Shown piece after piece: positions 26,761-56,384 of a stretch of DNA of 64,000 bases (its first letter is position 1; every line of letters begins with the position of its first letter). This stretch comes from Escherichia phage P-GXEC-L2P5. Both the position numbers and the translations under genes were made by a program. Under the pieces are notes generated by a model. The model did no database searches and was not told the origin of the DNA. It saw only the letters and a list, made by a program, of their open reading frames with translations. The stretch lies in the sequence record PQ843332.1. One strand, given 5' to 3'.

Positions 26761-26845
26761 TATTCCACCCGTGTAAACTGGACAATTACATATTTCACAT
26801 TACCGGATTGCGTTTTACGTTTTGGTTTAATCGCCATTATTCCAC

Positions 26846-27022
26846 CCGTGTAAACTGGACAATTACATATTTCACATTCGCCAAGCCCGCTTTTTCGACA
26901 CGGCTGCGCACTTCATGCTGCGCATCGGTCCAGCACATCGAGGCGTCCTTGTTAACAACAAGAAAAGAGAAATGGTCGTTTAATTCGTGGCAAGTTGCCA
27001 GCACGAAAAATTTCATTATTTT
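26846..27022 (-). CDS. hypothetical small protein
   Basis: 58 aa ORF; stop overlaps the DUF2800-like start. Confidence 0.3.
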
Positions 27023-27267
27023 GTCTCCCAGCGGTCAATTGTTTTTGCTTCGGATGCAACGGCGAAGCGAACATATTCCAGATTGGAGTCAGCCCAAATA
27101 TAAAAATCGGGGTTAGTAAAGGTGGTGCGCTTAATTTGCGCGGGGGTGTTGCGGCGTTTATCTATTACGGCAACGCGGGATTGAAAGCTGCCGATGCGTT
27201 CGAATAGCCAATAGTACGGGCGCTGGTCGCGGGAATCCACCGCCTCGATTAGCGTGAATCGTGCCAT
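27016..27267 (-). CDS. hypothetical protein
   Basis: 83 aa ORF in operon context; no recognised motif. Confidence 0.35.
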   Translation of the reverse strand: MARFTLIEAVDSRDQRPYYWLFERIGSFQSRVAVIDKRRNTPAQIKRTTFTNPDFYIWADSNLEYVRFAVASEAKTIDRWETK

Positions 27268-27276
27268 TGTCTCGTC

Positions 27277-27306
27277 CTCTAAAAAGAGGCCCGCTAATAT
27301 GCGGGC
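27277..27306 (-). terminator. hairpin ggcccgc-atatta-gcgggcc followed by T-rich run on minus strand
   Basis: Perfect 7-bp stem seen directly. Confidence 0.45.
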
Positions 27307-27445
27307 CGGATAATATTAATCTTCACCGCCGAGTTGTTTATAAACCTCGTCCGGGTCGTCGCCTCTTTCTTCGCAGAAGGCGGTGAATGCCGCCCAATTT
27401 TCTGCTATGAAATCGAGCATGATTCTCATTTCATAGTCCATGATA

Positions 27446-28040
27446 TTAATCTTCCAGTTCGAAATAAGTTTCGACGATTTCTTTTAGCTCTTTGTGGAAG
27501 TCTTCGACGTCGTCATCTTCCAGCTTAGCGATTGATTTGATCTCGAACGATTCCAGAAGGTCGTCGAATTCGTCGTTCGCATCGTCGTCATCGCCACCGG
27601 CGATAATCGCGGCATACTGTTTGATTTCGTCGCGCATCTCCGCCAGCGGATCGGCATCTTTCTTACCTTTGCCTTTCGCCGGTGCTTTCTTAGACTTAGC
27701 CGGTTTTTCGTCTTCGGCATCGGCATCGTCGTCGTCATCTTCTACGACTTCTTTTTTGGCCTTACCTTTCGCCGGTGCTTTTTTGGTTTTCGCCGGTGCT
27801 TCGTCTTCAGCGTCGTCATCTTCTACGACTTCTTTTTTTTACCTTTCGCCGGTGCTTTTTTGGTTTTCGCCGGGGCTTCGTCTTCAGCGTCGTCATCTTC
27901 TACGACTTCTTTTTTGGCCTTAGACGGCTTCTTGTCTTCCTGTTTACCAACGGCAGCGCCAACGGTTTCATAATGCTTAGCGATGATTTCCAGTGCTACT
28001 ACGCCGCGAGTGATCAGGTTTACGATTTGCTCAAACATGG
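27446..28040 (-). CDS. highly acidic protein with Lys-rich repeats (frame broken by duplication near 27740-27880)
   Basis: MFEQIVNLITRGVVALEIIAKHYE... then repeated AKKEVVEDDD / PAKTKKAPAKGKK blocks and a D/E-rich C-terminus; GGAGA RBS; first gene of the minus-strand operon. Confidence 0.45.
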
Positions 28041-32960: not shown

Positions 32961-33167
32961 GTGCGACGATCCGTGATATGCTTCAGCACAACCGCTTTGA
33001 GATAGGCGGTCGGGTGTTTCGCAATTACTTCGTGGCGCGTGCATGGGCGCGCCATATTGGCAAACCGGAAGGGGCAATTCGATGCTATACGTCTTCGCGG
33101 TAGTATGTGGCGGTAGTCTGGCGGCCCTGGTGCTGTTGGCGTCGGTTATTAGTCTGGTTAAATACCT

Positions 33168-33467
33168 ATGGGGCAGATTATGATTCATGATGTGATTTAT
33201 TGGTTTGGTATGGCCAGCATGTTATGCCTGGTTACGGGAGTGCTGGGCGCAATATGGGTATTCCTGGTATGGCCTGCGGTGGAAGCTGCCAGCATTACCC
33301 GGATGACATTCGAGATCTACAAGCGCCGTGGAATAACGGAGCACCCGACCAGGCTTCGGATGTGGTGGCTGTGGTATCGGGATATGATAGGCGGTCGAAC
33401 ATTCGAAGCCGTCCGCTCATCCGGGTGGGAGTGGAAAGGCGTCGGCAAGTTGTCCGTTTTCGATTAA
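33168..33467 (+). CDS. membrane protein, hypothetical (C-terminal region duplicated near 33420-33560)
   Basis: Hydrophobic N-terminal segment MASMLCLVTGVLGAIWVFLVW. Confidence 0.35.
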   Translation: MGQIMIHDVIYWFGMASMLCLVTGVLGAIWVFLVWPAVEAASITRMTFEIYKRRGITEHPTRLRMWWLWYRDMIGGRTFEAVRSSGWEWKGVGKLSVFD

Positions 33468-33566
33468 TTATGCAAGCGTGATATAGTCCCAGTGAGCTCG
33501 GGTGGGAGTGGAAAGGCGTCGGCAAGTGGTCCGTTTTCGATTAATTATGCAAGCGTGATATAGTCC

Positions 33567-33597
33567 CAGTGAGCTAAAACTTACTGGGACTTTTTTA
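33567..33597 (+). terminator. rho-independent terminator (agtcccagt...actgggact + tttttt)
   Basis: 9-bp perfect stem plus T-run immediately before the holin-like start. Confidence 0.6.
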
Positions 33598-33887
33598 TGG
33601 ATAAGCTAAACGAGTGGCTATTCGCCCTGGCATGTCTGGCGGGTGGCTTCGTAGGCGCACGCATTCATGGTGAGGCTACGAAGGGGCCGCTAAACTTCGT
33701 TTTGTATGTTGTAGTTGGCTTCCTGTGTGCCATATTTGGCGCACCGGCTATTGCCGAGTGGGCTGGTTTGTCGGGTGAGCGCACTGTCGCCGGTTTGGGC
33801 TTCGTAACTGCGATCTTCTGGATGCCAATCGCCGACCGGATCAGGGAGACTATTGCGTCGTTCCGACTTCCGGGGGGCGCAAAATGA
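33597..33887 (+). CDS. holin-like membrane protein
   Basis: 96 aa with three hydrophobic segments; immediately upstream of second membrane protein and lysozyme. Confidence 0.5.
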   Translation: MDKLNEWLFALACLAGGFVGARIHGEATKGPLNFVLYVVVGFLCAIFGAPAIAEWAGLSGERTVAGLGFVTAIFWMPIADRIRETIASFRLPGGAK

Positions 33888-34129
33888 TTATCTCCGTCCT
33901 GTTGTTTGTTATCATCGGGGCTTCGTCCCTGTTTAACGTGTATGCGCCGTCCGTCCGGGATGGCATTTTCGGTCGGGTGCTGTATCTGTTAACGGCAATG
34001 GTCTGTATTATCGGATTGTTGCAAACAGGAGACGTATCGGATACCACCTGGACCGCGTTAATCTGGCTGTTTGCATTGCGCACCCTGCGTAATGCTGTTT
34101 TAAATGGGGTAAAACATGCGATTCAGTGA
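33884..34129 (+). CDS. membrane protein, holin/antiholin candidate
   Basis: 81 aa, 2-3 hydrophobic segments; stop overlaps endolysin start. Confidence 0.4.
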   Translation: MIISVLLFVIIGASSLFNVYAPSVRDGIFGRVLYLLTAMVCIIGLLQTGDVSDTTWTALIWLFALRTLRNAVLNGVKHAIQ

Positions 34130-34192
34130 TAACGGTCTTCTGGCTGTTTGCATTGCGCACCCTGCGTAATGCTGTTTTGAATGGGGTAAAAC

Positions 34193-34838
34193 ATGCGATT
34201 CAGTGATAACGGTCTACGATTTACGGCAGCCTGGGAGGCTTTCAGCCCGGTGCCGTATTTCGCGACCAAGAAAGAGCAGGCCCGCGGCCTGTACACCTGG
34301 GGCTATGGTCACAGGCTTTCAGCCCGGTGCCGTATTTCGCGACCAAGAAAGAGCAGGCCCGCGGCCTGTACACCTGGGGTTATGGTCATACCGGCACTAA
34401 TCCGCCTCGAAGCATTACCCGCGAGGAAGCGCTGGCACTGCTCAAGCGCGATGTGGCGTATGCTGAGGACTGGGTTAACAAATACGCACATCCGAGCATT
34501 AACCAGGCGCAATTCGACGCGCTGGTGGACCTGGTAATCAACGCCGGTCCGGGTCCGATCGTACCGGATGACGTCGCGAATGATTTCGATGATGCGGTGT
34601 GGTGGACCTGGTAATCAACGCCGGTCCTGGTCCGATCGTACCGGATGACGTCGCGAATGATTTCGATGATGCGGTACGGTTGGGCGACTGGGCGAAGGTC
34701 CGTGCTACGCTGCCGCAGTTCCGCAAGCAAGGCGGCGAAGTGCTTAAGGGTCTGGTACGCCGTGCAATCGGCAGACAGGCGTTGTTTGATGGTAAGCAGT
34801 GGGACGTTGCCGAACGAATCGGTCGTAACGCTGCATAA
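34193..34838 (+). CDS. endolysin, lysozyme-like (frame broken by duplications near 34270-34360 and 34540-34640; start duplicated at 34112 and 34193)
   Basis: WEAFSPVPYFATKKEQARGLYTWGYGHTG resembles the lysozyme E...Y...G-x-GHT signature. Confidence 0.65.
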
Positions 34839-34854
34839 TACGAGGTAACACAGT

Positions 34855-35022
34855 ATGTTAAAAAGTATTCTTGATCATAATGCGGACGCGCTTGCTGCAC
34901 TGGCTAAAACCGAAGATCCGGGCGCTCGCGCTATCATCGCGGACTCTATAAACCACGCTGGGGTCTTCGATGCGAAGCTGCCTAGCCCACCACCGCAGGA
35001 GGAATCTGGTCCTGCAGCGTAA
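34855..35022 (+). CDS. hypothetical small protein
   Basis: 55 aa ORF with GAGGT RBS, followed by a duplication and terminator. Confidence 0.3.
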   Translation: MLKSILDHNADALAALAKTEDPGARAIIADSINHAGVFDAKLPSPPPQEESGPAA

Positions 35023-35105
35023 ACAATCAAGCCCGGGGGGTCTTCGATGCGAAGCTGCCAAGCCCACCACCGCAGGAGGAATCTGGTCCTGCAGCGTAAA
35101 CAATC

Positions 35106-35133
35106 AAGCCCGGAATTAACCGGGCTTTTTATT
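35106..35133 (+). terminator. rho-independent terminator (aagcccgg-aattaa-ccgggctt + tttta)
   Basis: Perfect 8-bp stem plus T-run. Confidence 0.65.
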
Positions 35134-35136
35134 GCT

Positions 35137-35172
35137 TGACTTGCAACCAACATAGACTCTATACTGCGACCA
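35137..35172 (+). promoter_or_regulatory. sigma70-like promoter TTGACT - 18 bp - TATACT; spacer contains TGCAACCAA
   Basis: Hexamers read directly from sequence; located after terminator. Confidence 0.45.
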
Positions 35173-35336
35173 ATCAACGAGAGGAGTAATCAAGATGGCA
35201 CGTAAAGATATTTGGGTATTAGCGATCTGGACCACCACGGCTTTTATCGACATGGTTATTTGCGAATTGATATAGCCCGCCGCCATACGGACCGTGGTAT
35301 ATTGTCCGCGGTCCACTAATCAGGAATTAATTAAAT

Positions 35337-36556
35337 ATGCACCCGCAAACTAAAATTACCGATGAGCAATTGATCGCAGAAATTCAGGAAGGGACTACAG
35401 TTAAAGAGATTGCGAAGAAGTACGGCATCGCACTTCGAAATGTCTATATGCGCAAAGCCCGCCTGTCTAAAAAGGGGATTGGTCACGGCAATGATGCAGT
35501 GATCCGTAAGCGCGTTGCCGATGGTTTTGGTGTTAAGCGCGTATCGGCCCTGGTACGCGGCAATGGCGAAGAGGTCATGTCGTGGGTCATCACTGAGCAG
35601 GACAAAGAGCGCCAACTCGAAGCCATGCGCGCTGTTGCAATGGCGAAGAGGTCATGTCGTGGGTCATCACTGAGCAGGACAAGGAGCGCCAACTCGAAGC
35701 CATGCGCGCTGTTGTCGAGGGTATGAACAGCGAAATCACACCGGCAGCGCCCGTAAACGCCACGCCAGTCCCGATTCAGGCGCTCGACTTGCTCAACCTG
35801 TACACAGTGTCCGACTTCCACCTGGGTATGCTGGCGTGGGGCGAGGAGACTGGCGAAGACTGGGATATGGCGATTGCTGAAGACCTGTTCTACCGCTGGT
35901 TTGTCGAAGCCTTCGCCCGCGCACCGGACGCAGGAACTGCCGTTATCAATATCCTCGGGGATATGGCCCACTTTGATAGCCTTGATGCCGTCACACCGGC
36001 AAGCGGTCACGTACTGGACGCCGACACACGATACCAGAAGTTGGTCCGCTATATGATTCGCATGGTGCGCAACGTGGTTGACCTGGCGCTGCAAAAACAC
36101 CACAAAGTAAAACTGCTAATCGTCCAGGGTAATCATGACGAGTCGGGCATGATTTGGCTTGCTGAGATGTTCAATACCCTGTATGAGAACGAGCCGCGCG
36201 TCGATGTGGACACGTCCCCGGACGTCTACAAAATGGTGCAGCACGGTAAGACCACGCTATTTTTCCACCACGGGCACAAAGCGCGATTCGATGTTATCGA
36301 GCAGGTTATGATCGCTAAATTCAGACAGGCGTTCGGGGCGAGCGAATACAGCTACGCGCACGTAGGCCATTTGCACCACCAGAAGATTGTTGAATCCCGC
36401 AACATGATTGTCGAACAGCACAGGACGCTCGCAGCGAAAGACGCCTACGCCAGTCGTGGCGGCTGGATGAGCGGTCGCAGCGCAAACGTCATCACCTATA
36501 GCGCCAACTACGGAGAAGTAGCGCGCTTAACCATTAGCCCGGAAATGTTGAAGTAA
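35337..36556 (+). CDS. metallophosphoesterase (calcineurin-like) with N-terminal HTH domain (frame broken by duplication near 35560-35710)
   Basis: N-terminal TVKEIAKKYGIALRNVYMRKARL; phosphoesterase motifs ILGDMAHFDS, VQGNHDE, FFHHGHK, HVGHLHH. Confidence 0.55.
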
Positions 36557-36570
36557 CGGCGACCCGTAAC

Positions 36571-36603
36571 CAGCCCAGCCTGCCGATTTGGTGGGCTTTT
36601 TTG
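36571..36603 (+). terminator. rho-independent terminator (cagcccagc...gtgggct + tttttt)
   Basis: Stem-loop plus T6 after the phosphoesterase gene. Confidence 0.5.
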
Positions 36604-36605
36604 TG

Positions 36606-36620
36606 CCTGTTATAATCCCC
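36606..36620 (+). promoter_or_regulatory. extended -10 promoter element TGT-TATAAT upstream of the terminase operon (duplicated near 36690)
   Basis: Consensus TATAAT with upstream TG read directly; no good -35. Confidence 0.4.
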
Positions 36621-36763
36621 GTTAGATGGCAGGGCCGTCTCCTATGTTGCCGATGGCTGCCGATTTGGTGGGCTTTTTTGTGCCTGTTATAATCCCCCTT
36701 AGATGGCAGGGCCGTCTCCTATGTTGCCGATGGTCGGCGCATATGAACAAAAGGGCATATATC

Positions 36764-37315
36764 ATGGCAGAAATCAAAGTTAAGGGCCGACGCGCCAAAC
36801 TGGACGGACGAGTAGCAGTTACCCCGCGCCGTAAACCAGGCGAGCAAACCGAGCATACCAATCTCGGACCTGAAATCGAGTACGGAAAGCGCCGTAAAGG
36901 CGGCAAATGTGGACGCCCTACGGACTACCGATCCGTTTACTGCGACCAGCTTCGCCGCTATTTTGCCGACGCCGACGCCTGGCAGGTCAACTACTCCGAT
37001 AAAGGCGCTGCGCAAGTAATCCCCCGCAACAAAATGCCAACCTTTGGTCGATTTGCCGCGGAAATCGGTGTGGGCGTAGCTTGCCTGTATCGCTGGGCGC
37101 GCGCACATGAGGAGTTCGCCGAGGCGATGGCGGATGCTATGGAGTTGCAGAAAACTTTCCTGATGGAAGCTGGTGGCGTAACCATCGCGGCGGGCTTCGC
37201 TACGTTCCTGCTTAAAGCAAACCACGGCGTCCGCGACGATGTACCGCTGGACGACGACGAAGATGATAACGGCGACGTCGTTGTGGAACCTACCGGCAAA
37301 GGTCAGGGTGATTAA
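36764..37315 (+). CDS. terminase small subunit candidate
   Basis: 183 aa immediately upstream of and overlapping terminase large subunit; basic N-terminus, acidic C-terminus; AAGGG RBS. Confidence 0.5.
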   Translation: MAEIKVKGRRAKLDGRVAVTPRRKPGEQTEHTNLGPEIEYGKRRKGGKCGRPTDYRSVYCDQLRRYFADADAWQVNYSDKGAAQVIPRNKMPTFGRFAAEIGVGVACLYRWARAHEEFAEAMADAMELQKTFLMEAGGVTIAAGFATFLLKANHGVRDDVPLDDDEDDNGDVVVEPTGKGQGD

Positions 37316-38777
37316 TGCGTAACTATGCGGCAGAACACCGCGCACTGGAACGCGCGATCGCAAAGCGCAACCGACCACCACGCCCCACACGCGTTGCGCA
37401 GGCTGTGCGTCTTTACCAGCCAGATTGCCTTCCTCACCAGGTTGAACTACTGCGCGACACGAAGACTAAAATCCTCGGCCTGTGTTCCGGCTTCGGCGGT
37501 GGCAAGTCATGGGTTGCCGCACGTAAGGTCATCCAGCTTCTGACACTTAACCCTGGTTATGACGGCATCGTGACCGAACCGACTATTCCACTCCTGGTCA
37601 AAATCATGTACCCGGAACTGGAGAAGGCATTCGACGAGGCTGGCTTACGGTGGAAGTTCAATAAGCAGGACAAGATCTACAACGTGCTGGTGAAAGGCAA
37701 ATGGACTCGCGTTATCTGTGAGTCAATGGAGAACTATACCCGCCTGATCGGGGTCAACGCCGCGTGGATTGTTGCCGACGAGTTCGACACCACGAAACAA
37801 GACGTCGCAATGGCGGCATACCACAAATTGCTCGGTCGTCTGCGTGCGGGCTTCGTCCGCCAGTTTGTCATCGTGTCCACGCCGGAAGGCTACCGGGCGA
37901 TGTATCAAATATTCGAGGTGGAGAAGGGTAGCCAGAAGCGCCTGATCCGGGCGAAGACCACGGACAACCACCATTTACCGGCAGACTTTATCGACACGCT
38001 GCGCAGTCAGTACCCGGCTAACCTGATTGATGCGTACCTGAACGGCCTGTTTGTTAACCTTACGTCGGGCGCGGTGTACAAGATGTTCAACCGCGAGGAG
38101 AACGCCAGCACCGAAGAAGTGCAGCCGGACGACACGCTGATTATCGGTATGGACTTTAACGTCACGAAAATGGCGGCGGTTGTGTATGTCAGACGGCAGC
38201 GCATCACCGAGAACAAGGAGTTCCGCGACGAGATCCACGCAGTGGATGAATTTGTGGACCTGTTTGACACCCCGGCTATGATTGAGGCGATCGAGGAGCG
38301 CTACCCGGAACATTGTGCCGCCGGTAGGGTCGTCGTTTACCCGGATAGCAGCGGCAAATCCCGCAAGACGGTCAACGCGTCGTCGTCCGATATCGCACAA
38401 CTGGAAGACGCGGGCTTCGAGGTGGAGTATGACAGCGTTAACCCGCCTGTGAAAGACCGATTGATCGCGATGAATACGATGATGTGCAACTCGAAGGGCG
38501 TGCGCCAGTATTTGTTAACCCGCCTGTGAAAGACCGATTGATTGCGATGAATACGATGATGTGCAACTCGAAGGGCGTGCGCCAGTATTTTGTCAACCTG
38601 GATAAATGCCCTACACTAGCGAAATGTCTGGAACAGCAGGTTTACGACCTGAAGAAAGGCGAGCCGGATAAAACCGCCGGGGTGGACCACATGAACGATG
38701 CCGCGGGCTACCCTATTGCGCACTTGTTCCCTGTGATTCGTCCGATCGCCGTTGTTCCAACTGTAGACTTCTACTAA
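37315..38777 (+). CDS. terminase large subunit (frame broken by duplication near 38450-38570)
   Basis: Walker A GLCSGFGGGKS, Walker B-like IVADEFD; nuclease-like C-terminal half; ORFs 37315-38529 and 38484-38777 are contiguous. Confidence 0.75.
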
Positions 38778-38788
38778 GGAAACCGACC

Positions 38789-40691
38789 ATGACCGTTAAC
38801 GTTGACAACCAGCACCCGCTCTATGCGCGCATAGCGCCAGAGTGGAAAATGATCCGTGACTGCGTAGCAGGGGAGCGCGCCGTGAAGGCGTGCGGGCCAT
38901 TGTACCTGCCACACCCCGCAAGCGGGGACACCACCGACCCGAAATCACGGGCACGCTATAAGGCATATAAGCAACGCGCTGTCTTCCTGAACGCCACCGC
39001 CCGCACACTGAATGCGCTGTTAGGTGTCGCCTTCGCCAAACCGGTGAGTATGGACCTTTCCGGGGCAATGGCTGACCTGATTGATGACGTAGACGGCAGC
39101 GGGATGCCACTGGCGCAACTACTGCGCGGCGCTATGTCGGAAGTGCTGCAATCAGGCCGTGCCGGTTTTATGGTGGACTACGACCGCCAGGCGCATTTTG
39201 ACGAACTGGGTAACGTAGTGCCGCAGACCGCCGCTGAAATGGCGGCACACCGCCCGCTTATCCGCCTGTATACGGCTGAACAGATCATCAACTGGCGGCG
39301 CAGACCGCCGCTGAAATGGCAGCACACCGCCCGCTTATCCGCCTGTATACGGCTGAACAGATCATCAACTGGCGGCAGACCCACGGGGTAGACACGCTAA
39401 TCGTGCTGAAGGAGACGGACGAAATCAGCACCGAAGACCCGGACGACTTCGCAAACCACGAAGTTACGATCTGGACCGAGTGCTGAAGGAGACGGACGAA
39501 ATCAGCACCGAAGACCCGGACGACTTCGCAAACCACGAAGTAACGATCTGGACCGAGCTTCGCATGATTGCAGGTGCGGCACATGCCCGCCGCTGGTTTT
39601 ACAACGCGGACACGTCCGAGGTGCAAATGGACTTGCCGCGGGGATTCACCCGCACCGATCTTGTACCGCTGGTGGATGCCTCCGGTAATGCGCTTACTCA
39701 ACTGCCATTTTGCTGGTGTGGTGCGGTGGACAACAACGCGACACCGGACGCCGCACCGCTGGCGGATATTGCGTCCATCAACATTAAGCACTACAACGCC
39801 GAGTGGACAACAACGCGACGCCGGACGCCGCACCGCTGGCGGATATTGCGTCCATCAACATTAAGCACTACAACGCCGAAGCAGACGTCGCCGAGATTGC
39901 GCACATTGTGGGCCAACCTACACTCATTGCGACCGGTCTGACCCAATCATGGGCCGATAAAAACCTGAAGGGAGGCATCGCGCTCGGTGCAACTAAGGGC
40001 GTTATCTTGGGCCAGAACATGGACGCTAAACTGCTTCAAGCTGAGGAGAGAAACCTGTCAGTTGCGCTGTGTGAGCGACGCGAATTGCAAATGGCTAAAC
40101 TGGGCGCGGCCCTGGTCGAGAAGGGGGAAACCTGTCAGTTGCGCTGTGTGAGCGACGCGAGTTGCAAATGGCTAAACTGGGCGCGGCCCTGGTCGAGAAG
40201 GGGACCGCACCTAAGACGGCAACTGAAGCGGCCTACGATGCGCAGACTGATAACAGTATCCTGTCACTGATTGCCGGTAACGTTGAGAAGGCTTTCAACC
40301 GTGCGCTGCAGATCGTCAAGCTGTTCACGGGGGACACCGCAGATCAACGTGTAACGCTGAATAAGTTCTACACCGAGATCACGGTGGATGCACAGCTTAT
40401 GACCGCAATGATGGCGGGTGTGCAGACCGGTACGGTCCGTCTGGCGGACTTTATCAAGTGGATGATGCACAGCTTATGACCGCGATGATGGCGGGTGTGC
40501 AGACCGGTACGGTCCGTCTGGCGGACTTTATCAAGTGGATGATGGCCCAGGGCGTTATTGATGACTCGCAAACCGTCGAGCAGGTGGAAGACGAACTGCG
40601 AAATCAGAATCCATTGCCTCAAATGTCCCCGGATGCGGTAGAATCTACCGAAGAAGACCAGGACAAGGTAGCGGACAATGGCGAAGACAAT
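38789..40691 (+). CDS. portal protein (frame broken by five duplications between about 39260 and 40500)
   Basis: About 560 aa after removing duplicates; position directly after terminase large subunit; acidic C-terminus. Confidence 0.55.
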
Positions 40692-42012
40692 TAATCAATA
40701 TATGGCGGATCGAATGATCCGCCGTCACATCTTCACCCAGCGCCTTAGCAATGACCAGGCGCGAAGGGTGCTGTCCATGTGGGAGAAGTTCCGGCCCACA
40801 TTACTGGGAAAGCTGACCGAGTTGCTTGATGGCAAATCGTCAATGAATAACAGGGCACTTTCCACCCTGCTAACGCAAATCGACAAGACCGTTAAATCAG
40901 AATTGCGCACCGAGTTTAAGGCGTTGGCTGAAAGCCTTCAGGAGTTCGCCGACACGGAGGCTGATTATCTCACCGACACATTAACGGCAGCGATCCAGCC
41001 GGTGGTGAAAGCCTTCAGGAGTTTGCCGACACGGAGGCTGATTATCTCACCGACACATTAACGGCAGCGATCCAGCCGGTGGTCGCTGTACCTGCGGTCG
41101 AGGTGGTTGGCGTAGTGACCGGTGCGCAGATCGCAGCGACGGCAATGAAAAACCCGTTTCAGGGCAATACCCTGATGCAATGGCCCGATTCACTTTCAGA
41201 ATGGACCAGGACGCAGATCGGCAATCAGGTGCGCGCGGGATTCATCCAGGGTAAGCCGACTTTGGAAATTATAGCGGACGTGAGGCGCGCGCTCGGCGGT
41301 CGTAGTGCGCAAGCTCTCTCAAGCGTTGTTAAGTCCGCAGTCAACCACTATGCGGCGACCGCCCGCGAACTAATGGTAAAAGCAAATGACGATATTCTCG
41401 AAGGTCGCCAACAGCAGTCAACCACTATGCGGCGACCGCCCGCGAACTAATGGTAAAAGCAAATGACGATATTCTCGAAGGTCGCCAATGGTTATCTACA
41501 TTGGACACGCATACTTCTCCCATGTGCCAGCTACGCGATCGCCTGTTTTATCCGGTTGATGTTACTCCCGACACCAAAGGAAAGCGCGGCGGGAAAATGG
41601 TGGCTGGGTCACAATATGGCGCTGGTCCGGGCAAGTTGCATTATTGCTGCCGGTCTACGGAGACGTGGAAGGTTAAAGGCATGGAAGATTGGCCCAGTGG
41701 TAAGCGGGCAAGTTGCATTATTGTTGCCGGTCTACGGAGACGTGGAAGGTTAAAGGCATGGAAGATTGGCCCAGTGGTAAGCGTCCGGCACTGAAGGCTG
41801 ACGCTGGTCGATTGCTGAGTGAGCAGGTCGACGCGCAGACTGATTTCTTCTCATGGGTGCAGCGCCAGCCGCGCCATATCCTGGAAGAATTATACGGAGT
41901 GCAACGCGCCGACCAGATTATGCGCGGCGTGAAAGTGCCGAAGATGTTCACCGATTCAGGCGAACTAATGACTATCGCACAGCTTAAAAACCGGGGGTTA
42001 TGGCGTGATTAA
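40678..42012 (+). CDS. head morphogenesis protein, Mu F / SPP1 gp7-like (frame broken by duplications near 40960-41080, 41340-41460 and 41640-41760)
   Basis: WLSTLDTHTSPMCQLRDRLFY signature region; position after portal. Confidence 0.6.
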
Positions 42013-42334
42013 ATATGCAGCGATTGGACTGATTATCGGTCTGGCGGTAGGATTCTGGCTAGGTGACTCCTATCGCACTGGCGTAGTGGCGGAGGCGGCG
42101 CAAGAAGCGCAAGCCCAAGCCCAACGGCAGCAAACTAAAGTTGTTGAGCGCTCCGTGCAGGCCGAACAAGCCCGCGACGTAGAATACCGGACTATCACGA
42201 AAGAGGTTGTTAAATATGTTACGCGCCCTAACCGCCCTGATTGTAGTTTTGATGCTGAGCGCGTGCGGATCAAGCAACGCGCCGTTGATGCCGCTAACGG
42301 AGTCGGCACTGCGACCGCCGTGCAAGTTCGATAA
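42005..42334 (+). CDS. Rz-like inner-membrane spanin candidate
   Basis: N-terminal TM helix IKYAAIGLIIGLAVGFWLG then Gln/Ala-rich coiled coil; embedded lipoprotein ORF in +1 frame. Confidence 0.45.
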   Translation: MIKYAAIGLIIGLAVGFWLGDSYRTGVVAEAAQEAQAQAQRQQTKVVERSVQAEQARDVEYRTITKEVVKYVTRPNRPDCSFDAERVRIKQRAVDAANGVGTATAVQVR

Positions 42335-42440
42335 CCCGTCTGCGGACCCCGACGAAGATTTGATGATTGATGTTAAAAATATGGAATGCGGGGGCCGTGC
42401 AAGTTCGATAGCCCGTCTGCGGACCCCGACGAAGATTTGA
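42207..42440 (+). CDS. Rz1-like outer-membrane lipoprotein spanin candidate, embedded in and extending past Rz-like gene (C-terminus affected by duplication near 42300-42440)
   Basis: Signal peptide MLNMLRALTALIVVLMLSACGSS with lipobox LSAC; Pro-rich mature part. Confidence 0.45.
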   Translation: MLNMLRALTALIVVLMLSACGSSNAPLMPLTESALRPPCKFDNPSADPDEDLMIDVKNMECGGRASSIARLRTPTKI

Positions 42441-42475
42441 TGATTGATGTTAAAAATATGGAATGCGGGGCGAAG

Positions 42476-42700
42476 CTAAGGGCGCAGGTGCTGGAGTTGC
42501 AGCAAATAATTAAGGGGCCGTAATGGCCCCTTTTTCGTTAGCGCGGCGAATGTGCGAATGCCGTCCGGCATACAGTCCAGCGTGATTGCGTACGCCAGAT
42601 CGCGTGAGTCCATCATGATTTGTTTGGCTTCGGTTGCGATTTCGTGGTCGCGCAGGATGTTAGCCAGGATCTGATGTTTAATATCTTTCGTCAGTCTCAT
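42476..42700 (-). CDS. hypothetical small protein on minus strand within head module
   Basis: 74 aa ORF; 3' end runs into the terminator hairpin, so true stop is uncertain. Confidence 0.3.
   Translation of the reverse strand: MRLTKDIKHQILANILRDHEIATEAKQIMMDSRDLAYAITLDCMPDGIRTFAALTKKGPLRPLNYLLQLQHLRP
42512..42537 (+). terminator. bidirectional rho-independent terminator (aaggggccgtaatggcccc + ttttt)
   Basis: Perfect GC stem with A-run before and T-run after. Confidence 0.6.
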
Positions 42701-42771
42701 TTTTGTGTCCTCATTATTGGGGCTTTCGCCCCGATTGGTTTAGTTAAATTTGATGTTGCCGCTGGTTGAGG

Positions 42772-43131
42772 TTAAGCGAGCACATACAGCTTCAACGGCA
42801 TCGACGCACATGAAATCGTTAAAGGCTTCGACCAGCCACCGGTGGAAGTTAAGCGGGCACATACAGCTTCAACGGCATCGACGCACATGAAATCGTTAAA
42901 GGCTTCGACCAGGGCGTTTATGAAAGATGCCGGAACCAGGCCGCAAGCCGGATTATCGAATATCGCGGAGTTGATCGCCGCTTTTGCCGCTTCAGAAGCA
43001 TTCATGCTCTGGCACAGATTCAGCGCTTCCGCGTTACGCATTGCGTGAAAGGTAAAGGTATTCGCTACGGTAGCTTTATTGAAACGGGCCATTGCGGCGT
43101 CTACTGGAGTTGCTACGGTCATGTTAGTCAT
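42772..43131 (-). CDS. hypothetical protein on minus strand (frame affected by diverged duplication near 42768-42912)
   Basis: Start ATG 43131 with AGGAAG RBS; ATTGGTTGCACACCAACA about 28 nt upstream. Confidence 0.35.
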   Translation of the reverse strand: MTNMTVATPVDAAMARFNKATVANTFTFHAMRNAEALNLCQSMNASEAAKAAINSAIFDNPACGLVPASFINALVEAFNDFMCVDAVEAVCARLTSTGGWSKPLTISCASMPLKLYVLA

Positions 43132-43348
43132 TTTGTCTTCCTTCATATCTCTGTTGGTGTGCAACCAATTCCAGCAGCGCAAGCGAATTTTGCGATTATT
43201 TTTATCACTGATAATATTAAGGCGTGAAGTCAAGCGGGTGGCCCGCTTTGCCACAATCAGCGAATTTTGCGATTATTTTTATCGCTGATAATATTAAGGC
43301 GTGAAGTCAAGCGGGTGGCCCGCTTTGCCACAATCCCAGGGGGATAGC

Positions 43349-44050
43349 ATGAAACTTACTAAAGCAGAATATGACGCGTTGCCAGAAGGCATGAAGGCTT
43401 TATTTGTTGCCGATGGCGATGGGTATAAATCCACGTTCATGACCGCCGAAGAAGTACAGGCGGAGATCAAGGGTCTGAAAGACAACAACGCGAAGCTGGT
43501 TAGCGAGAAGAAAGCAGAAGCCGAACGTCGCGCCGAAGCCGAGCGCCTTGCGAAAGAGAAAGAGGAAGCCGCCGCGCGCAAAAATGGCGACCTCGAAGCG
43601 ATCGATAAGTCCTGGAAAGATAAGTTCGCAAAACATGAAGCGGACACATCGGGGAAGATCGAAGCCTACCGCAAGCAGATCCACGACCTAACCATCGGCA
43701 GCGCTGCCAAAGATTTGGCCTCGAAGCTGTTCGGTAAGAATGCCGGCATCATGCAACGCCACGTTATGGACCGCCTCACGCTGGAAGACGGCGAGGACGG
43801 CAGCTTGAAGGTGCGGGTACTGAAGGACGGCAAACCCTCCGCGCTGACTATGGAAGAGCTAGAAAAAGAGTTCCGTAGTAACGCCGATTTTGCATCCGTC
43901 CTGGCTGGCACGCCAGCCGGTGGTGCTCCGAGCAAACCGACGCAGGTCGTCGAAGATGTGAAGTCGAAAATCACTATGGGACACAGCTTCGGTATCACTG
44001 ACTTGACGAAACAGGCCGGGGATATCATTGCTAAAATGGGCGACGAGTAA
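43349..44050 (+). CDS. scaffolding-like protein (coiled coil, upstream of major capsid gene)
   Basis: MKLTKAEYDALPEGMKALF then Lys/Glu/Ala-rich helix; GGGGGA RBS; position before capsid gene. Confidence 0.45.
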   Translation: MKLTKAEYDALPEGMKALFVADGDGYKSTFMTAEEVQAEIKGLKDNNAKLVSEKKAEAERRAEAERLAKEKEEAAARKNGDLEAIDKSWKDKFAKHEADTSGKIEAYRKQIHDLTIGSAAKDLASKLFGKNAGIMQRHVMDRLTLEDGEDGSLKVRVLKDGKPSALTMEELEKEFRSNADFASVLAGTPAGGAPSKPTQVVEDVKSKITMGHSFGITDLTKQAGDIIAKMGDE

Positions 44051-44147
44051 GCAGGCCGCCCGCGAAAGCGGGCGATTTTGCGAGCGCGTAAATCTAAGGT
44101 AACATTAACGGCACTGGGCGAATGCTCACAACTCAAAGGATTCTAAT

Positions 44148-48963: not shown

Positions 48964-49432
48964 TTGAGGCGGCGCGGCGCTTTTATGGCCCGCCCACTTC
49001 GTACTATCTCGAACTGATGGGATTGCGTGAAAAAAACTAATTGAGGCGGCGCGACGCTTTTATGGCCCGCCGCCACCCTCCGAAGATTTAGCCGCGAGTT
49101 TATGGGGCGCGGCCCCTGAAGATGTTTGCCCACCAGTTGCGCTATGGCCCGACAACGCGAAGGTAGTCGCCGTCTTCACGGATTGCTCCACGCAATGGCG
49201 CACCGGATTCGGCGGCGCATACGGCATCGACTACGGCGTACTGGAATGGCTTTTTAAGATGCACGGCATCGAAAACGCGCCGGATTCGGTGGCGCATACG
49301 GCATCGACTACGGCGTACTGGAATGGCTATTTAAGATGCACGGCATCGAAAACGCGCAACGTGCGTTTAAAGATATCAAGCTAATGGAACGCGTTGCGCT
49401 GGATGAAATGGCGCGGCAGAACCCCGCATAAC
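48954..49432 (+). CDS. gpT-like extension reached by -1 frameshift from the G-like gene (region contains duplications near 48937-49080 and 49180-49330)
   Basis: The -1 frame after AAAAAAC reads KKLIEAARRFYGPPPPSEDLAASLWGAAPEDV... and ends ...KLMERVALDEMARQNPA-stop at 49432. Confidence 0.5.
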
Positions 49433-49893
49433 GGAGCGGGACAGGCGGGACGTCCCGTTTTGTCCCGCCACCACTAAACCGCATATATACTCACTTTCAT
49501 TGCATAAATTAAAAGCGGGACAGGGGTGCTGTCCCGCTTTGTCCCGCCCCCAAAATGTGAATATCTATTCGATTTTCGTGCATAAAACAAACGGGACAAA
49601 AAGCGGGACAGAATTGGGCGGGACAAAGCGGGACAGCACCCCTGTCCCCGCCAGTGCTGCCGCGGGTTTTAGCCGATCGGGACAGGCGGGACAAAGCCCA
49701 GTCTTTCAGACTAGACGGGGGGTCTGTCACCCCCCTCGTCTGAGACTGAATAAGGTTTGTTTTAAATTCGCTGATACAATGACCGACGGCAACTGCATAA
49801 AAAGGGCCCCCCTCGTCTGAGACTGAATAAGGTTTGTTTTAAATTCGCTGATACAATGACCGACGGCAACTGCATAAAAAGGGGGACTGCATA
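49433..49893. repeat. non-coding repeat module R3, second-copy counterpart of R1
   Basis: Same GCGGGACA arrays, inverted pair GCGGGACAGGGGTGCTGTCCCGC, hairpin and TGCATAAA boxes; ORFs called here are spurious. Confidence 0.7.
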
Positions 49894-52800
49894 ATGGCAG
49901 ATCAGGCAGCGGGCATCACGCTCAAGGCGGACGTCGCGCAAATTAAAACGGCGAATACTGTGCTGGACACATTTGCGCAGAAATCCGAGAACACAGAACA
50001 GAAAGTCAAAAAATTAAACGACACCCTCGGCAAGTCGAAAAAGGTCACTGGCGACGCCGCGGGCGGAATGGAAAAGTTAGCGACTGAATCGCAGCGCGCC
50101 GCCGACGGCATGACGAAACAGGAGCGACTAGCCAGCCGATTAGGCATGTCGACCAAGAACCTGGGATTCGCATCGCCGCCGACGGCATGACGAAACAGGA
50201 GCGACTCGCCAGCCGATTAGGCATGTCGACCAAAAACCTGGGATTCGCATCGCGGAACGCCGCATTCCAGTTACAGGATATCGCGGTTACGCTTGAGATG
50301 GGTATGCCGGTGCACCGCGTCATGCTTCAGCAGCTACCGCAGCTTACTGGGGCGTTTGGCGGACTGGGAAACACGCTGCATTATGTCGTCGGCACACTCG
50401 GCCCGTTAGGGATTGGCATCGCTGCATTAACGGCAACGCTCGGCGTAGGGGTGGCAATTACGACCCGCGCAGAGAACCAGGTGGCGGCGCTTAATAAGAC
50501 GCTGGCGCTGTCCGGTAATATTTCAGGCCTGACAGCTAACCAGATCCTTGTGCTGTCCGAGAACGCCGAGCGCATGGGCGGGTCATTTCGCAAGACGCGT
50601 GACACAATCCAGGCGCTGGCGGCGGCGGGTGTGAAAGCGGGTGGTGACTTTGGCGCATTGGCTAAGGTAGTGAATGACTTTGCGAAGGTGTCCAGCCAGC
50701 CGATCGAGGATGTGGTGGCGGCGGTGGCGAAGCTGTCAAGAAGGTAGTGAATGACTTCGCGAAGGTGTCCAGCCAGCCGATCGAGGATGTGGTAGCGGCG
50801 GTGGCGAAGCTGTCAACCGACCCCGTTGGCGGACTGCGTGCGCTGGCGGATAAGTATCACGTCGTAAACGAAGCGCAGATCCAGCAGGTACAGTCGCTCG
50901 TTGATGCGGGTCGTGAGACAGACGCAGTTGCGTTGGCTAACAAAACAGCCGCTGCGTCGTTCACCAGCATGACCAATGAGATCAAGGCGAACATGGGTAC
51001 GCTTGAGCGATCTATGAACGTCGTCACATCGGCAGCCAAATCAATGTGGGACGCTATCCTGGATGTGGGTCGCGCGCAGTCCTCCAATGAGTCCGAGATG
51101 AAAGCGCGCGAATCACTCCAGCGCATGACCACGGCTTACTATGCCGAGATGAAAGCGGTAAACGCTGCCGGTGGGGTAATGACTGAAGCGCACTGCAGCG
51201 GCTGACCACGGCTTACTATGCCGAGATGAAAGCGGTAAACGCTGCCGGTGGGGTAATGACTGAAGCGCAGAAAGCACGTATTAACATGCTTTACAGCGAA
51301 CTGGTCGCCCAGGAAAAAGTGGTGGCGTCGCTCACCCTGCGTAACCGTGCGGAGCGAGACAACGCCCGCGCCGCAGATGAATCCGCAAAGGCGAACGAGG
51401 AGGCCAACCGCACCGCCCGCGACCGCGCCGCGTTTGAAAAGGAGTACGCAACTAACGCGAAGAAGCGCGCCGACGAGATCGCCCGCCTCAATTTGCTGAA
51501 TAAGCGCGGCGTTATTGATGAGAAAGAGCTTGCCGAGGCGGTTAAGCAGGTAAACGAGCGTTACAAAGACCCGGCCCCGAAGAAGGCCGCGGCTGTTCGC
51601 GTGGATGCCGGTATGAAAATGCTGGAAGTCGCACGGAGCGAACTGGCCCAGCTCCGAAAAAGGCCGCGGCTGTTCGCGTGGATGCCGGTATGAAAATGCT
51701 GGAAGTCGCACGGAGCGAACTGGCCCAGCTTCGAGAATCCGGCAAGCAGATCGAAGCCAACGCGTCTACGCAGACCCGCACGCAACGCGCGCAAGCGGCC
51801 TTAAACAAGCTGATCGCCGACAATGAGCAGTTAATCGCCGCAAGCAAAGAAAGAGCGCTAACGGCAGCCGAAAAGCAGCAATTAGTCGAGTTCGGGCGCG
51901 TGAAGGAAGTCCGCGAGCAGATCGTCGAAGAAGCCAAATTGCTGGACGCGAAAGAGAAGCAGGTTAAGGCGCACGCGCAGATCGATGCCTTCGTTAAGAA
52001 CCAGAACGCCGAACTATGCTGGATGCGAAAGAGCAGCAGGTTAAGGCGCACGCGCAGATCGATGCCTTCGTTAAGAACCAGAACGCCGAACTAAAAGCCA
52101 CCGCCGCGGGGTATGCGCTTTCCACTCGCGAAGCGGCAAACCTGCGCGAAGAATTGCAGCTAATCGACCGCCTGAAGCGTGTAGGCGCTAACGATACCGA
52201 TATTGACAAGGCGGTGTCTAAGCTGCGAGAATGCAGCTAATTGACCGCCTGAAGCGGGTTGGCGCTAACGATACCGATATTGATAAGGCGGTGTCTAAGC
52301 TGCGAGAAGTGCAGGAAGCACAGACCGGCGCTAACGCCTCGTTATGGGATGGATTCAGTCGCGGGCTTAAGGATAGCGTGGATGAAATGGGTAACGGATA
52401 TACGCAGATGGCGTCTCTCACGAAATTCACATTCAGCGCTATGCAGGACACGATGAACGAGTTTTTCGAGACTGGCAAGCTGAACGCAAAGGATATGGTT
52501 AAGTCCATCCTGAGCGAATTAATCAAGCTGGCTACCTCGCAGGCGTTCAAGTCCATCGTTAGCGCTTTCGGTGGCGACGGCGGCAAAAACGGATTGTTCG
52601 GCGCTATCTTCTCGGGCCTCACCAAGAATGCGGACGGCGGAGCGTACGTGGCGACGGCGGCAAAAACGGATTGTTCGGCGCTATCTTCTCGGGCCTCACT
52701 AAGAATGCGGACGGCGGAGCGTACACCGGAGGCAATCTCGCGGCCTATTCGGGGCAAGTGGTGAGCCAGCCTACCTTTTTCAGTTATGGCGTCCAGGCGT

Positions 52801-53152
52801 TCGCTAAGGGCGCTGGGTTGATGGGTGAGGCTGGACCCGAGGCCATCATGCCGCTGAAGCGCGGGCCGGACGGGAAACTGGGCGTTGCCGCGTCTGGCGC
52901 AGGCGGTGGTATGGTCGTGACGACTAACGTTTACACGGGGACCGGTAAAACGGATACCAGTGTGCCGCGTCTGGCGCAGGCGGTGGTATGGTCGTGACGA
53001 CTAACGTTTACACGGGGACCGGTAAGACGGATACCAGTGTCAGCGGGCCGGATCCCCGTACCGCGCAGGCGTTCGGCAAGCAAATCACCGAGGCGGTGAA
53101 GGCCGAGATCGTGAAGGCGACGAAACCGGGTGGTGTACTTTACAAACGATGA
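49894..53152 (+). CDS. tail length tape measure protein, second copy (fragmented by tandem duplications)
   Basis: ORFs 49894-50190 through 52671-52997 are collinear with 605-3401 at about 95% aa identity. Confidence 0.7.
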
Positions 53153-53186
53153 TAAAATGGCCCTCACTACAACGTGGGGGCTTTTT

Positions 53187-54017
53187 ATGTCACAAGGTAC
53201 AATCACACTAACGAAAGGAAGTAAGACCGTCACGGGCGCGGGAACGGCGTTCCTTAGCGAGATCGGGAAGGTACTCGTATTCGCCCGCATCGACGGCAAC
53301 GACTACACCGGCAAAATTGCGGCATTCAACTCGAACACGGTCATTACTCTGAAAGATAACTGGGCCGGGACGGCAACGACTACACCGGCAAAATTGCGGC
53401 ATTCAACTCGAACACGGTCATTACTCTGAAAGATAACTGGGCTGGGCCGACGAAATCCGGTGCGGCATATGAGCTAATCGAAGCACACGACCCGCGATCA
53501 AACGAATGGCCCTATTACTGGCACATGCAATTGCAAGGCGGCGGAGTGAGCTAATCGAAGCACACGACCCGCGATCAAACGAATGGCCATATTACTGGCA
53601 CATGCAATTGCAGGGCGGTGGCGACGTGCAGTTAGCTTTCCGGTCGGAGGAATTGCAATTCGGTAACGGTTACGGACAGAACATCGCGGACGGCCCGAAC
53701 GCCGAAACGAAACAGTTCCCCGTGCAATTCGTCGGGCTGACTACGGACAAATGGTGCGCATCGCGGACGGCCCGAACGCCGAAACGAAACAGTTCCCCGT
53801 GCAATTCGTCGGGCTGACTACGGACAAATGGTGCAATCCTAAACTGGTTTACAACTTCCTTCGCGGTCACTTCGTAAAACCGTTTGTCGTCACAGCACCA
53901 GATGGCGAAACAGGTTTATTCGTGGTCGAGCGTTCGAGCTTGTCGTACACGGACAACGGGCACTACACGGCAACGGTATCCGCCACCCTTAAGACTGCTA
54001 TTGGATTCGTAAGATGA
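53187..54017 (+). CDS. minor tail protein, gpM-like, second copy (frame broken by duplications near 53330-53430, 53470-53620 and 53690-53840)
   Basis: Collinear with 3436-4112. Confidence 0.5.
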
Positions 54018-54879
54018 ATAAACTTTATCGCGAGGCGACGCGCTTTGACCCATCGGGCCGCGTTCGCCTGATTCACATTGACGCGCAGGACGTGGAACCA
54101 GGCGACGGCGCGATCGGAGCGGGCCATCACTATTTTCATTACTGCTTCATTCCGCTGACGCGCAGGACGTGGAACCCGGAGACGGCGCGATCGGCGCGGG
54201 CCACCACTATTTTCATTACTGCTTTATCCCACACACTGCGGAGGATATCGCTGCCGCGGGTGGTGACGAGGATAAGCTAAAACCTAAATCAATCTTCTTC
54301 GGCGGGCAGGAGTTCGAATTTTGGCCCTTCGATTTGTCCGGCCTTAACTTTTCCACATCGACGGCAGCAGAACCGCAACTAACAATCGTCGATATTGGCG
54401 GCATAATAACCCGGCTGTCACTGAATCACGACCAGCTACTGGGCGCGAAGGTTGAAATAATCGACACATTCGCGAAGTTCCTGGATAACGGGTCGGACCC
54501 AGACCCGACGCAGAAACGAGTGCAGGAGTATTACATCGACTCGCAGGTCGGGCGCAATCCAGGCAAGCAAATCACCTTCGCACTATCCTCCCCCGCGGAT
54601 ATGGAAGGGCAGGTCGTTCCCCGTCGCCAGATCATGAACATGTGCGAATGGGCGCTCAACGGGAAGTACGCCAGCGGGGACGGTTGCACATGGAACCTTG
54701 CACAGCCTGGAATAAAGTATTACGACGAGCGAGGTAATGAAGTCATCGCAATGAATATGGACCGATGCGGCGGCTGTTTGTCCGACTGCTATCTTCGTTT
54801 TGGGCAAGGGCTTGCGGATCCTAAAGCTGCGGTGCTGGACTTCGGTGGTTTTCCTGGGTCCAAATTAATCAAGGGGTAG
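54014..54879 (+). CDS. minor tail protein, gpL-like, second copy (frame broken by duplication near 54090-54200)
   Basis: Collinear with 4109-4897. Confidence 0.7.
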
Positions 54880-54881
54880 CC

Positions 54882-55622
54882 ATGTTAACGAAAAAGGTTA
54901 AAAGCGATATCGCCGCGCACGTTGCGGCATGTCTGCCTGAAGAAGCCTGTGGCCTTGTTGTCATGGTGGGCCGCAAACAAGTATTTGTCCCGTGCATGAA
55001 CGTATTCGAAGACCCGACCGGCGTGCGCTCACGCAGAGACGCATTCACGATTAGTGATATGGCCTGGATGGATGCCGAGGATATGGGCGACGTCGTGCGA
55101 GTAGTCCACTCGCATCCAGGCCAGCGAGAGCTTACACCCTCACTTGGCGACGTTAACGGATGCAACGGCAGCGGCGTAGTCTGGACCATCACTAACGAAT
55201 ATGGCGACTTTATCGAGATCGACCCTGAAGACCCGCCGCTGGTAGGCCGCCGATTTGTTCTCGGAATTACAGATTGTTATGGCCTCGTCATGGACTGGCA
55301 CAAAAAGCAGGGTGTAAACCTGCCAGACTTCCGCGTGCCGTATAACTGGTGGGAGACAGGCGAAAATCTGTATATGGATAATTGGTACGGTGCTGGCTTC
55401 AGGGAATGCGAGGAGAATACGCCGGGGGCAATGGTCATCATGCAGATTAGCGCGCCTGTGCCTAACCACGCTGGGATATTCCTTCCGGGCAACCAACTAC
55501 TACACCATATCTACGGCAGCCTGTCGAGCGTGATTCCCTTCCGGTCAGGATTTTTCCGGGACAATGTGGTTAAATGGGTACGTCATAAAGACCTACCGGG
55601 GAATATAACAGAATGGCAATGA
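54882..55622 (+). CDS. tail assembly protein, gpK-like, second copy
   Basis: Intact 246 aa ORF; about 11 substitutions relative to 4900-5640. Confidence 0.8.
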   Translation: MLTKKVKSDIAAHVAACLPEEACGLVVMVGRKQVFVPCMNVFEDPTGVRSRRDAFTISDMAWMDAEDMGDVVRVVHSHPGQRELTPSLGDVNGCNGSGVVWTITNEYGDFIEIDPEDPPLVGRRFVLGITDCYGLVMDWHKKQGVNLPDFRVPYNWWETGENLYMDNWYGAGFRECEENTPGAMVIMQISAPVPNHAGIFLPGNQLLHHIYGSLSSVIPFRSGFFRDNVVKWVRHKDLPGNITEWQ

Positions 55623-56384
55623 CCACATTTAAATTATACGGCGTTTTAGGACGTCGATTCGGTAAAGTGCATAAGCTGGACTGCTTCACTCCGGGCGAGG
55701 GTATCACCGGCCTGTGCGTGAAGTTACCCGGCTTACAGGACTTTCTAATGTCGGCCCACCTGGACAATATGATGTTCAAGGTGCGCAAAGGCGACCACAC
55801 GATGACCGGCTATGATGAGCTGGGCGAGTTCCACGGCAACCGCGTATGATGTTCAAGGTGCGCAAAGGCGACCACACGATGACCGGCTATGATGAGCTGG
55901 GTGAGTTCCACGGCAACCGCGTCGTTACCATCGCGCCGGTTATGACGGGCGCAAAAAGAGGGTTGGGACAATTGCTGGCGGGTGTCGCGATCGTAGTGGC
56001 GTCGTTCTATACGGGCGGACTTGCTACTGCCGCTTTCGGGGCTTCGGCTGCAACCGCTGCCGCTATCGGGACGGCGACGTTTTCGTTCGGGATGTCGATG
56101 GCGCTGGGTGGCGTTATGCAATTGCTGTCGCCACAACCGAAAGGATTGCAGACAAGGCAGGACGTGGATAACAAAGCGTCGTACGCGTTCGGCGGGCCTT
56201 GCTGTCGCCACAACCGAAAGGATTGCAGACAAGGCAGGACGTGGATAACAAAGCGTCGTATGCGTTCGGAGGCCCAGTAAACACTACCGCGCAAGGCACG
56301 GCGCTTGGTGTATTATGGGGCGAGCGTGAGATCGGCGGCGCTATTATTTCAGCCGGAATCGTAACCGAGGACTTGAACGAATGA
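55613..56384 (+). CDS. tail assembly protein, gpI-like, second copy (frame broken by duplications near 55790-55880 and 56150-56260)
   Basis: Collinear with 5631-6248. Confidence 0.6.

Follow-up and report, generated by a model that had tools for sequence, protein, structure and literature searches.

Several described systems built on a calcineurin-like metallophosphoesterase (MPE) domain can be set beside the gene analyzed here. These are the nuclease domain of Mre11/SbcD, which comes with a C-terminal capping domain and a Rad50/SbcC partner; the small subunit DP1 of PolD, a 3'-5' proofreading exonuclease; and, in phages, the MPEs of cluster A mycobacteriophages such as Bxb1 gp47 and A10ZJ24 Gp48 (PHROG 221, 255 aa), which have no helix-turn-helix (HTH). 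Bxb1 gp47 is reportedly a recombination directionality factor (RDF) and is said to be needed for replication. An RDF works together with a serine integrase, and Dhillonviruses have none. For A10ZJ24 Gp48, a phosphodiesterase, disruption of or damage to host DNA and blunted expression of defense genes have been reported (PMC12287305). These mycobacteriophage MPEs are the nearest characterized phage proteins, and they serve as functional leads rather than as demonstrable relatives, the motifs common to the whole superfamily being all that they have in common with the family described below. Bxb1 gp47 was rejected as a member of the family described below (PHROG 704), as it maps to PHROG 221 and its alignment with hhalign had a probability of 4.7%, with only motifs III-V aligned. 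It should be noted that Bxb1 gp47 (8021-8788 of the Bxb1 sequence compared) aligns to just positions 110-363 of the PHROG 221 profile, which has 367; the other proteins of that separate family therefore have some 110 further residues at the N terminus, possibly a parallel to an HTH followed by an MPE.

Within PHROG 704 itself, a close counterpart is the 'DNA repair exonuclease' of the Drexlerviridae, represented by gp37 of Klebsiella phage Sushi. It has the same HTH and MPE layout as the protein studied here and is 44% identical to it. This orthologue is persistent, and its module is present in 508 of 522 Drexlerviridae (PMC13164509).

The window, that is, the whole stretch of 64,000 nucleotides of Escherichia phage P-GXEC-L2P5 (PQ843332.1) that was analyzed, had been described in a preliminary way as carrying an HTH-MPE gene in a single frame at 35337-36556. 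This was not the case for the raw sequence. The interval is 1220 nt long on the plus strand (1220 mod 3 = 2) and contains no single continuous open reading frame (ORF); frame 1 from 35337 hits a stop after 129 codons, and the HTH and the MPE lie on two ORFs in different frames, both of which encode the peptide GNGEEVMSWVITEQDKERQLEAMRAV. The split arises because a tandem duplication with a period of 77 (35560-35636 and 35637-35713, one synonymous mismatch), detected with Tandem Repeats Finder and a repeat finder, shifts the frame. When one 77-bp copy is removed, 1143 nt encoding a 380-aa protein are left and, since the mismatch is synonymous, deleting either copy gives an identical protein. 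In the raw sequence, then, the HTH stands on an ORF of its own, and collapsing the duplication fuses it to the MPE. The fusion therefore stands after sequence correction, and the preliminary description had evidently read through the duplication. The features of the locus are as follows:

35337-35726, plus strand: raw ORF with the HTH part, 129 aa, beginning MHPQTKITDEQLIAEIQEG (from the ORF list for 33000-40000)
35654-36556, plus strand: raw ORF with the MPE part, 300 aa, in another frame than the HTH ORF
35337-35636, plus strand: first part of the gene, codons 1-100, with HTH residues 9-45 at 35361-35471, then a flexible linker
35526-35636, plus strand: beta-hairpin and start of the following helix, residues 64-100
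35637-35713, no strand: artefactual second 77-bp copy, which splits the gene (which copy is called the artefact is arbitrary)
35714-36556, plus strand: second part of the gene, codons 101-380 and the stop codon
35789-36553, plus strand: MPE catalytic domain, residues 126-380, with D134 at 35813-35815

The locus is one gene of 1143 nt, the Dhillonvirus orthologue of gp03 of Escherichia phage JL1 (YP_006990390, 'DNA repair exonuclease') and of gp44 of phage B2 ('putative phosphoesterase'). The collapsed protein is identical to JL1 gp03 at 377 of 380 positions (99%), and all three proteins are 380 aa long. Three substitutions and the artefactual 77-bp duplication are the only differences from JL1 gp03 and B2 gp44. 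Aligned with JL1 and B2, the window carries a clean 77-nt insertion, the duplication being missing from both. In a megablast search against phage genomes, a stretch of 2301 nt around the gene corresponded to 2147 nt in each reference, that is, 2 x 77 nt less. Gene order is also common to the window, JL1, and B2: two holin genes, the endolysin gene, two small ORFs, the HTH-MPE gene, terS, and terL.

A direct scan revealed 80 tandem duplications of exactly 77 bp each across the whole window (at 296, 416, 1222, 2897 and so on up to 63547), with 0-6 mismatches and about 500 bp (median) from one to the next. Any that falls within a gene causes a frameshift (77 mod 3 = 2). As the duplication at our locus is one of these 80, we consider it an assembly artefact and not biology. 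Genes broken in the same way include:

34193-34838: endolysin gene, broken by a duplication
37315-38777: terL, broken by a duplication at 38437
38789 onward: portal gene, broken by duplications at 39222, 39403, 39726, and 40050

The two overlapping ORFs of the raw sequence are what would be expected if the split were real, with the HTH and the MPE made as separate polypeptides or joined by programmed frameshifting across a genuine 77-bp duplication. Against this stand the identical length of the 80 duplications, the disruption of essential genes such as terL, portal, and endolysin, the absence of the duplication from related genomes, and the composition of the window itself. With all duplications collapsed, the window measures 57,840 nt, about 1.3 times the genome of phage B2 (44,283 bp), and the tail-gene region is present twice (1 to about 13000 and about 49400-64000). 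The chance that the split is genuine is therefore close to nil. Since the two copies of the tail-gene region are only about 90% identical, the window joins two related strains and is not one natural molecule. It has the appearance of a walk along the k=77 (SPAdes-type) assembly graph of several Dhillonviruses in mixture, written out without trimming the overlaps between nodes. The type of assembler is something we infer; the nonbiological origin of the duplications is firm. Many of the 77-bp copies differ by 1-3 bases, where exact de Bruijn overlaps would show no difference. Of note, a duplication at 36580-36733, just downstream of the gene, doubles a terminator hairpin and gives the terS ORF a spurious N-terminal extension: the ORF is listed at 36626-37315, as compared with 36743-37315 for terS as annotated in JL1 (mapped from JL1). 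Gene calls anywhere in the window need the collapsed sequence.

The collapsed protein is a full-length member of PHROG 704 ('DNA repair exonuclease'), its residues 5-380 matching positions 2-390 of the 390-position profile with an E-value of 6.9e-161. The family is very large. It comprises 3731 clusters at 90% identity (E <= 1e-5), or 4674 representatives at 50% clustering (E <= 1e-3), most of them 370-420 aa long. A tblastn search of 50,697 phage records gave matches in 2073, and in 1681 of these the match extended over 80% or more of the protein. Members occur in Dhillonvirus, Kagunavirus, Jerseyvirus, and Drexlerviridae phages, as well as in phages of Erwinia, Rhodobacter, Vibrio, Ruegeria, and Campylobacter. 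The orthologue in Klebsiella phage Sushi had already been annotated as 'RNA polymerase sigma factor 70 region 4 type 2 and metallo-dependent phosphatase-like domains'. The fusion had been called unusual in the preliminary description, but the size of the family and the recording of both domains by the Sushi annotators make it the family norm, noticed before: the gene, one of those typical of HK578/JL1-like coliphages, is already catalogued and annotated, and its HTH-MPE architecture is genuine and ordinary. No experimental work on any PHROG 704 member was found in a literature search. Other searches gave little. NCBIfam returned nothing meaningful (PdeM, E-value 0.59; UhpA HTH, 0.012; no SbcD/Mre11 match), and the hits of a PDB sequence search with the single protein were confined to designed armadillo-repeat proteins, which are spurious and repeat-driven. 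A preprint on m6-dAMP and PUA-Cal-HAD was discarded as a lead, as it is about a host defense system and T2 denA, another protein.

All five metal-ligand and catalytic-histidine motifs of the calcineurin-like metallophosphoesterase superfamily (PF00149 / PF12850) are present in the protein: SDFH (motif I, residues 133-136), GDMAH (II, 182-186), GNHD (III, 239-242), HHGH (IV, 285-288), and GHLHH (V, 318-322). The four motifs named earlier (GDxxH, GNHD, HHGH, and GHLHH) are thus all there, with motif I in addition, which had gone unlisted. In an alignment of 79 homologues (33-81% identity), D134, H136, G182, D183, N240, H241, H286, G287, G318, and H321 are invariant. The wider sets D134/H136, G182-D183, N240-H241-D242, H285-H288, and G318-H319-x-H321 are invariant or at least 90% conserved, and H186 is likewise invariant or nearly so. 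The Pfam matches of the protein itself fall below the gathering cut-offs (Metallophos_2, PF12850: E-value 7.6e-5, score 23.2 versus 27; Metallophos, PF00149: E-value 8.4e-4, score 20.3 versus 21.5), while some family members pass them (P0148, 27.0; P0127, 25.1 versus 21.5, among others). An AlphaFold2 model built from the 79-sequence alignment had a mean pLDDT of 92.6 and a pTM of 0.80, with a pLDDT of 94-99 over residues 126-380, and showed the alpha/beta sandwich of MPEs. The MPE fold of the core is certain. It should be noted that a nearly invariant insert specific to this family lies between motifs II and III (window positions 35970-36032, residues ~186-206) and outside the classical MPE motifs. 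It reads H186-x-D188 ... T194-P195 ... L201-D202-x-D204-x-R206, with the consensus VTPxSGHxLDADxR, and may be a substrate-binding loop.

Comparison of the AlphaFold2 model with known structures gave the highest values for nucleases acting on DNA: 15.6 for the 3'-5' exonuclease PolD DP1, 15.1 for Mre11, and 15.0 for Staphylococcus aureus SbcD. These were followed by LpxH (13.9), MJ0936 (13.5), Rv0805 (11.9), and PP5 and calcineurin-type protein phosphatases (8.9-9.1). A nucleic-acid phosphodiesterase is therefore the best-supported activity class for the core. Protein phosphatase activity is unlikely, and assignment to the PPP-type Ser/Thr protein phosphatases (lambda PP / NinI-like) was rejected, as close structural and sequence similarity to them was not found.

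The protein is not a member of the Mre11/SbcD family proper. In structural alignments with the nuclease domains of Thermotoga maritima Mre11 (3qg5/4o43), S. aureus SbcD (7dog), and Escherichia coli SbcD (6s6v), identity was 14-18%, and the family profile matched T. maritima Mre11 weakly (E-value 0.38), which is not a significant match at the sequence level. The motifs are nonetheless in register (tDyHLG/SDWHLG, GDflHyD/GDLLHSRN, GNHD/GNHD, and GHlH/GHIH for the phage family and Mre11, respectively). In the AlphaFold2 model, the phage protein has an N-terminal HTH instead of the C-terminal capping domain of Mre11/SbcD. No Rad50/SbcC partner is annotated in the complete B2 genome, nor in six other neighborhoods, and the large unannotated ORFs of B2 turned out to encode an AAA_25 primase-helicase, a DUF2800/PD-(D/E)XK protein, an Enc34 SSB, and Nmad5, none of which is Rad50/SbcC. 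As a side observation, a Gam-like RecBCD inhibitor is encoded in the B2 genome besides the nucleotide-modification-associated protein Nmad5, the DUF2800/PD-(D/E)XK nuclease, and the Enc34-type SSB, by genes that are mostly annotated as hypothetical (e.g., 26796-27560, 39872-40201, 41521-42951, and 43277-44059). The similarity to DP1 (5ihe) is also limited to the core: identity is 13%, the accessory domains of DP1 are missing from the model, and there is no PolD large subunit. To our knowledge, the T1-like phages with a member of this family have no DNA polymerase gene.

The N-terminal HTH that had been proposed is a three-helix fold with sequence-profile support. In the AlphaFold2 model, its helices (residues 9-17, 22-29, and 33-45; pLDDT 92-94) are followed by a linker of lower confidence, after which come a beta-hairpin (64-88) and another helix (90-107). 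The HTH is of the resolvase / LuxR-GerE / sigma-70 region 4 type. Some members are called 'winged' HTH proteins at NCBI, a name that we did not retain, as the hairpin is confident in the full-length model only. When the N-terminal part was modeled alone, the HTH kept a pLDDT of 84-87, but the hairpin and helix dropped to ~45-57. Because of this collapse we took the hairpin for an extension docked on the MPE rather than for a wing, and the modeling suggests that the hairpin and helix pack onto the catalytic domain. The HTH is the least conserved segment of the protein (mean top-residue frequency of 0.36 versus 0.56 for the core). In longer relatives the HTH is doubled or of another type, and a few short ones do without it. 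This pattern fits a constant enzyme to which exchangeable modules for DNA targeting are attached, and the combination of one core with differing or doubled HTHs suggests that DNA targeting is the selected property.

The predicted transcription signals around the gene, all of them pattern or consensus matches only, are as follows:

35106-35127, plus strand: terminator-like hairpin at the end of the lysis-gene transcript (8-bp stem, 6 GC pairs, T-tail)
35136-35165, plus strand: sigma-70-like promoter TTGACT-18-TATACT (10 of 12 positions), ~170 nt before the start codon
36577-36597, plus strand: terminator-like hairpin between the gene and terS, 21 nt past the stop codon

Judging from these signals, the HTH-MPE gene looks like a transcription unit of its own. 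A 66-aa ORF on the minus strand (35116-35316), hypothetical in JL1 (gp04) and B2 (gp45) and without a Pfam match, is found between the lysis cassette and the HTH-MPE gene, antisense to the ~170-nt 5' leader that would run from the predicted promoter to the start codon.

As originally noted, the genes for the small and large terminase subunits are directly downstream, and from this position it had been suggested that the protein could be a packaging-associated nuclease or regulator that works on DNA ends where the terminase operon begins. This role is very unlikely, and nothing in the analysis connects the gene with packaging. Adjacency to the terminase genes is specific to Dhillonvirus; it was missing in every other genus examined (the Jerseyvirus, Webervirus, Casjensviridae, Vibrio, N4-like, and Campylobacter phages). 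In Jerseyvirus Ent1 the gene is found among tail genes, next to an HNH endonuclease gene, and in Webervirus Sushi it precedes the lysis cassette, by the polynucleotide kinase (Pnk) and dNMP kinase genes. It follows the lysis genes in Rhodobacter phage RcAquaphina, adjoins an HNH endonuclease gene in a Vibrio phage, comes after the ThyX and dCMP deaminase genes in an N4-like roseophage, and lies between DNA ligase/RusA and the tail sheath gene in a Campylobacter myovirus. The recurrent theme of these neighborhoods is DNA and nucleotide metabolism, not packaging. Moreover, in the window itself the terminator-like hairpin separates the gene from terS, the gene has a predicted promoter of its own, and the packaging nuclease of such phages is supplied by TerL.

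Other functions were weighed against the same evidence. The phosphoesterase domain of bacterial Pnkp provides a model for the healing of RNA or DNA ends, in which the MPE would remove 2',3'-cyclic or 3'-phosphates and act with polynucleotide kinase (and ligase) after attack by host anticodon or defense nucleases. We regard such a role as unlikely, even though the polynucleotide kinase gene is directly downstream in many Drexlerviridae (PMC13164509) and a DNA ligase gene is directly upstream in a Campylobacter phage. There is likewise a low probability that the protein is a bifunctional transcription regulator whose HTH binds promoters of the phage (perhaps including its own) or of the host, the MPE being a sensor or moonlighting enzyme. 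The resemblance of the HTH to the DNA-binding domains of LuxR/GerE, sigma-70 region 4, and resolvases, and the apparent isolation of the gene as a transcription unit, speak for regulation. Against it, family members share an invariant active site but vary most in the HTH, some members have no HTH at all, and no operator-like inverted repeat of at least 14 nt was found in 35000-37000. Regulation and nuclease activity are not exclusive of each other. An anti-defense phosphodiesterase that destroys the second messengers of host immunity (cyclic oligonucleotides or cNMPs) is quite improbable: structural neighbors of that kind come after the DNA nucleases in the ranking, an enzyme for a small-molecule substrate would have no use for a DNA-binding domain, PADLOC gave no match and no other link to a defense system was seen, and the gene contexts point to DNA and nucleotide metabolism.

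We therefore favor a nuclease, and the protein is probably a Mn2+-dependent DNA exo- or endonuclease with DNA affinity supplied by the HTH, which would act in phage replication or recombination and/or in the breakdown of host DNA. The neighboring genes counted toward this reading are those for Pnk and dNMP kinase, ThyX and dCMP deaminase, DNA ligase and RusA, and HNH endonucleases. Points against it are the sub-threshold Pfam scores, the missing capping domain and Rad50/SbcC partner, the placement of the characterized phage MPEs in another family, and the low conservation of the HTH. The parts of the protein are a small three-helix HTH, a flexible linker, and a two-metal MPE core preceded by the beta-hairpin and helix. 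The core would cleave DNA as a phosphodiesterase, in the manner of the nuclease domains of Mre11/SbcD or PolD-DP1, and the HTH would provide the affinity for DNA, taking the place of the Rad50/SbcC clamp and the capping domain. Expressed from its own predicted host-type promoter, the enzyme would serve replication and recombination by processing DNA ends or intermediates, and/or nucleotide salvage by breaking down host DNA, rather than packaging. That DNA is the substrate, that the HTH binds it, and that the protein has such a biological role is what we infer, whereas the gene structure, the artefact, the two folds, the intact active site, the broad distribution, and the changing gene context come from the analysis directly.

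The gene in the window is by itself of minor interest, being 99% identical to an annotated JL1 gene and part of a catalogued family, and the features that seemed unusual vanish on inspection. Taken as a whole, however, the family supplies a persistent gene to several large groups of virulent siphophages that are used in phage therapy and in research on defense systems, and it persists in phages of the T1-like, Jersey-like, and Dhillon-like kinds. More tentatively, PHROG 704 might be a distinct class of stand-alone nucleases in which an interchangeable HTH replaces both the Rad50/SbcC clamp and the Mre11/SbcD capping domain, although we hold this to be rather doubtful. If true, possible roles would include degradation of the host chromosome, for nucleotide salvage or for the shut-off of defense genes as claimed for Gp48, or, alternatively, an essential step in phage DNA replication, as for Bxb1 gp47. 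PHROG 704 is a reasonable, if unremarkable, target for biochemistry, and since no biochemical study of the family was found, a defined activity would improve the annotation of a gene carried by more than 2000 sequenced phages.
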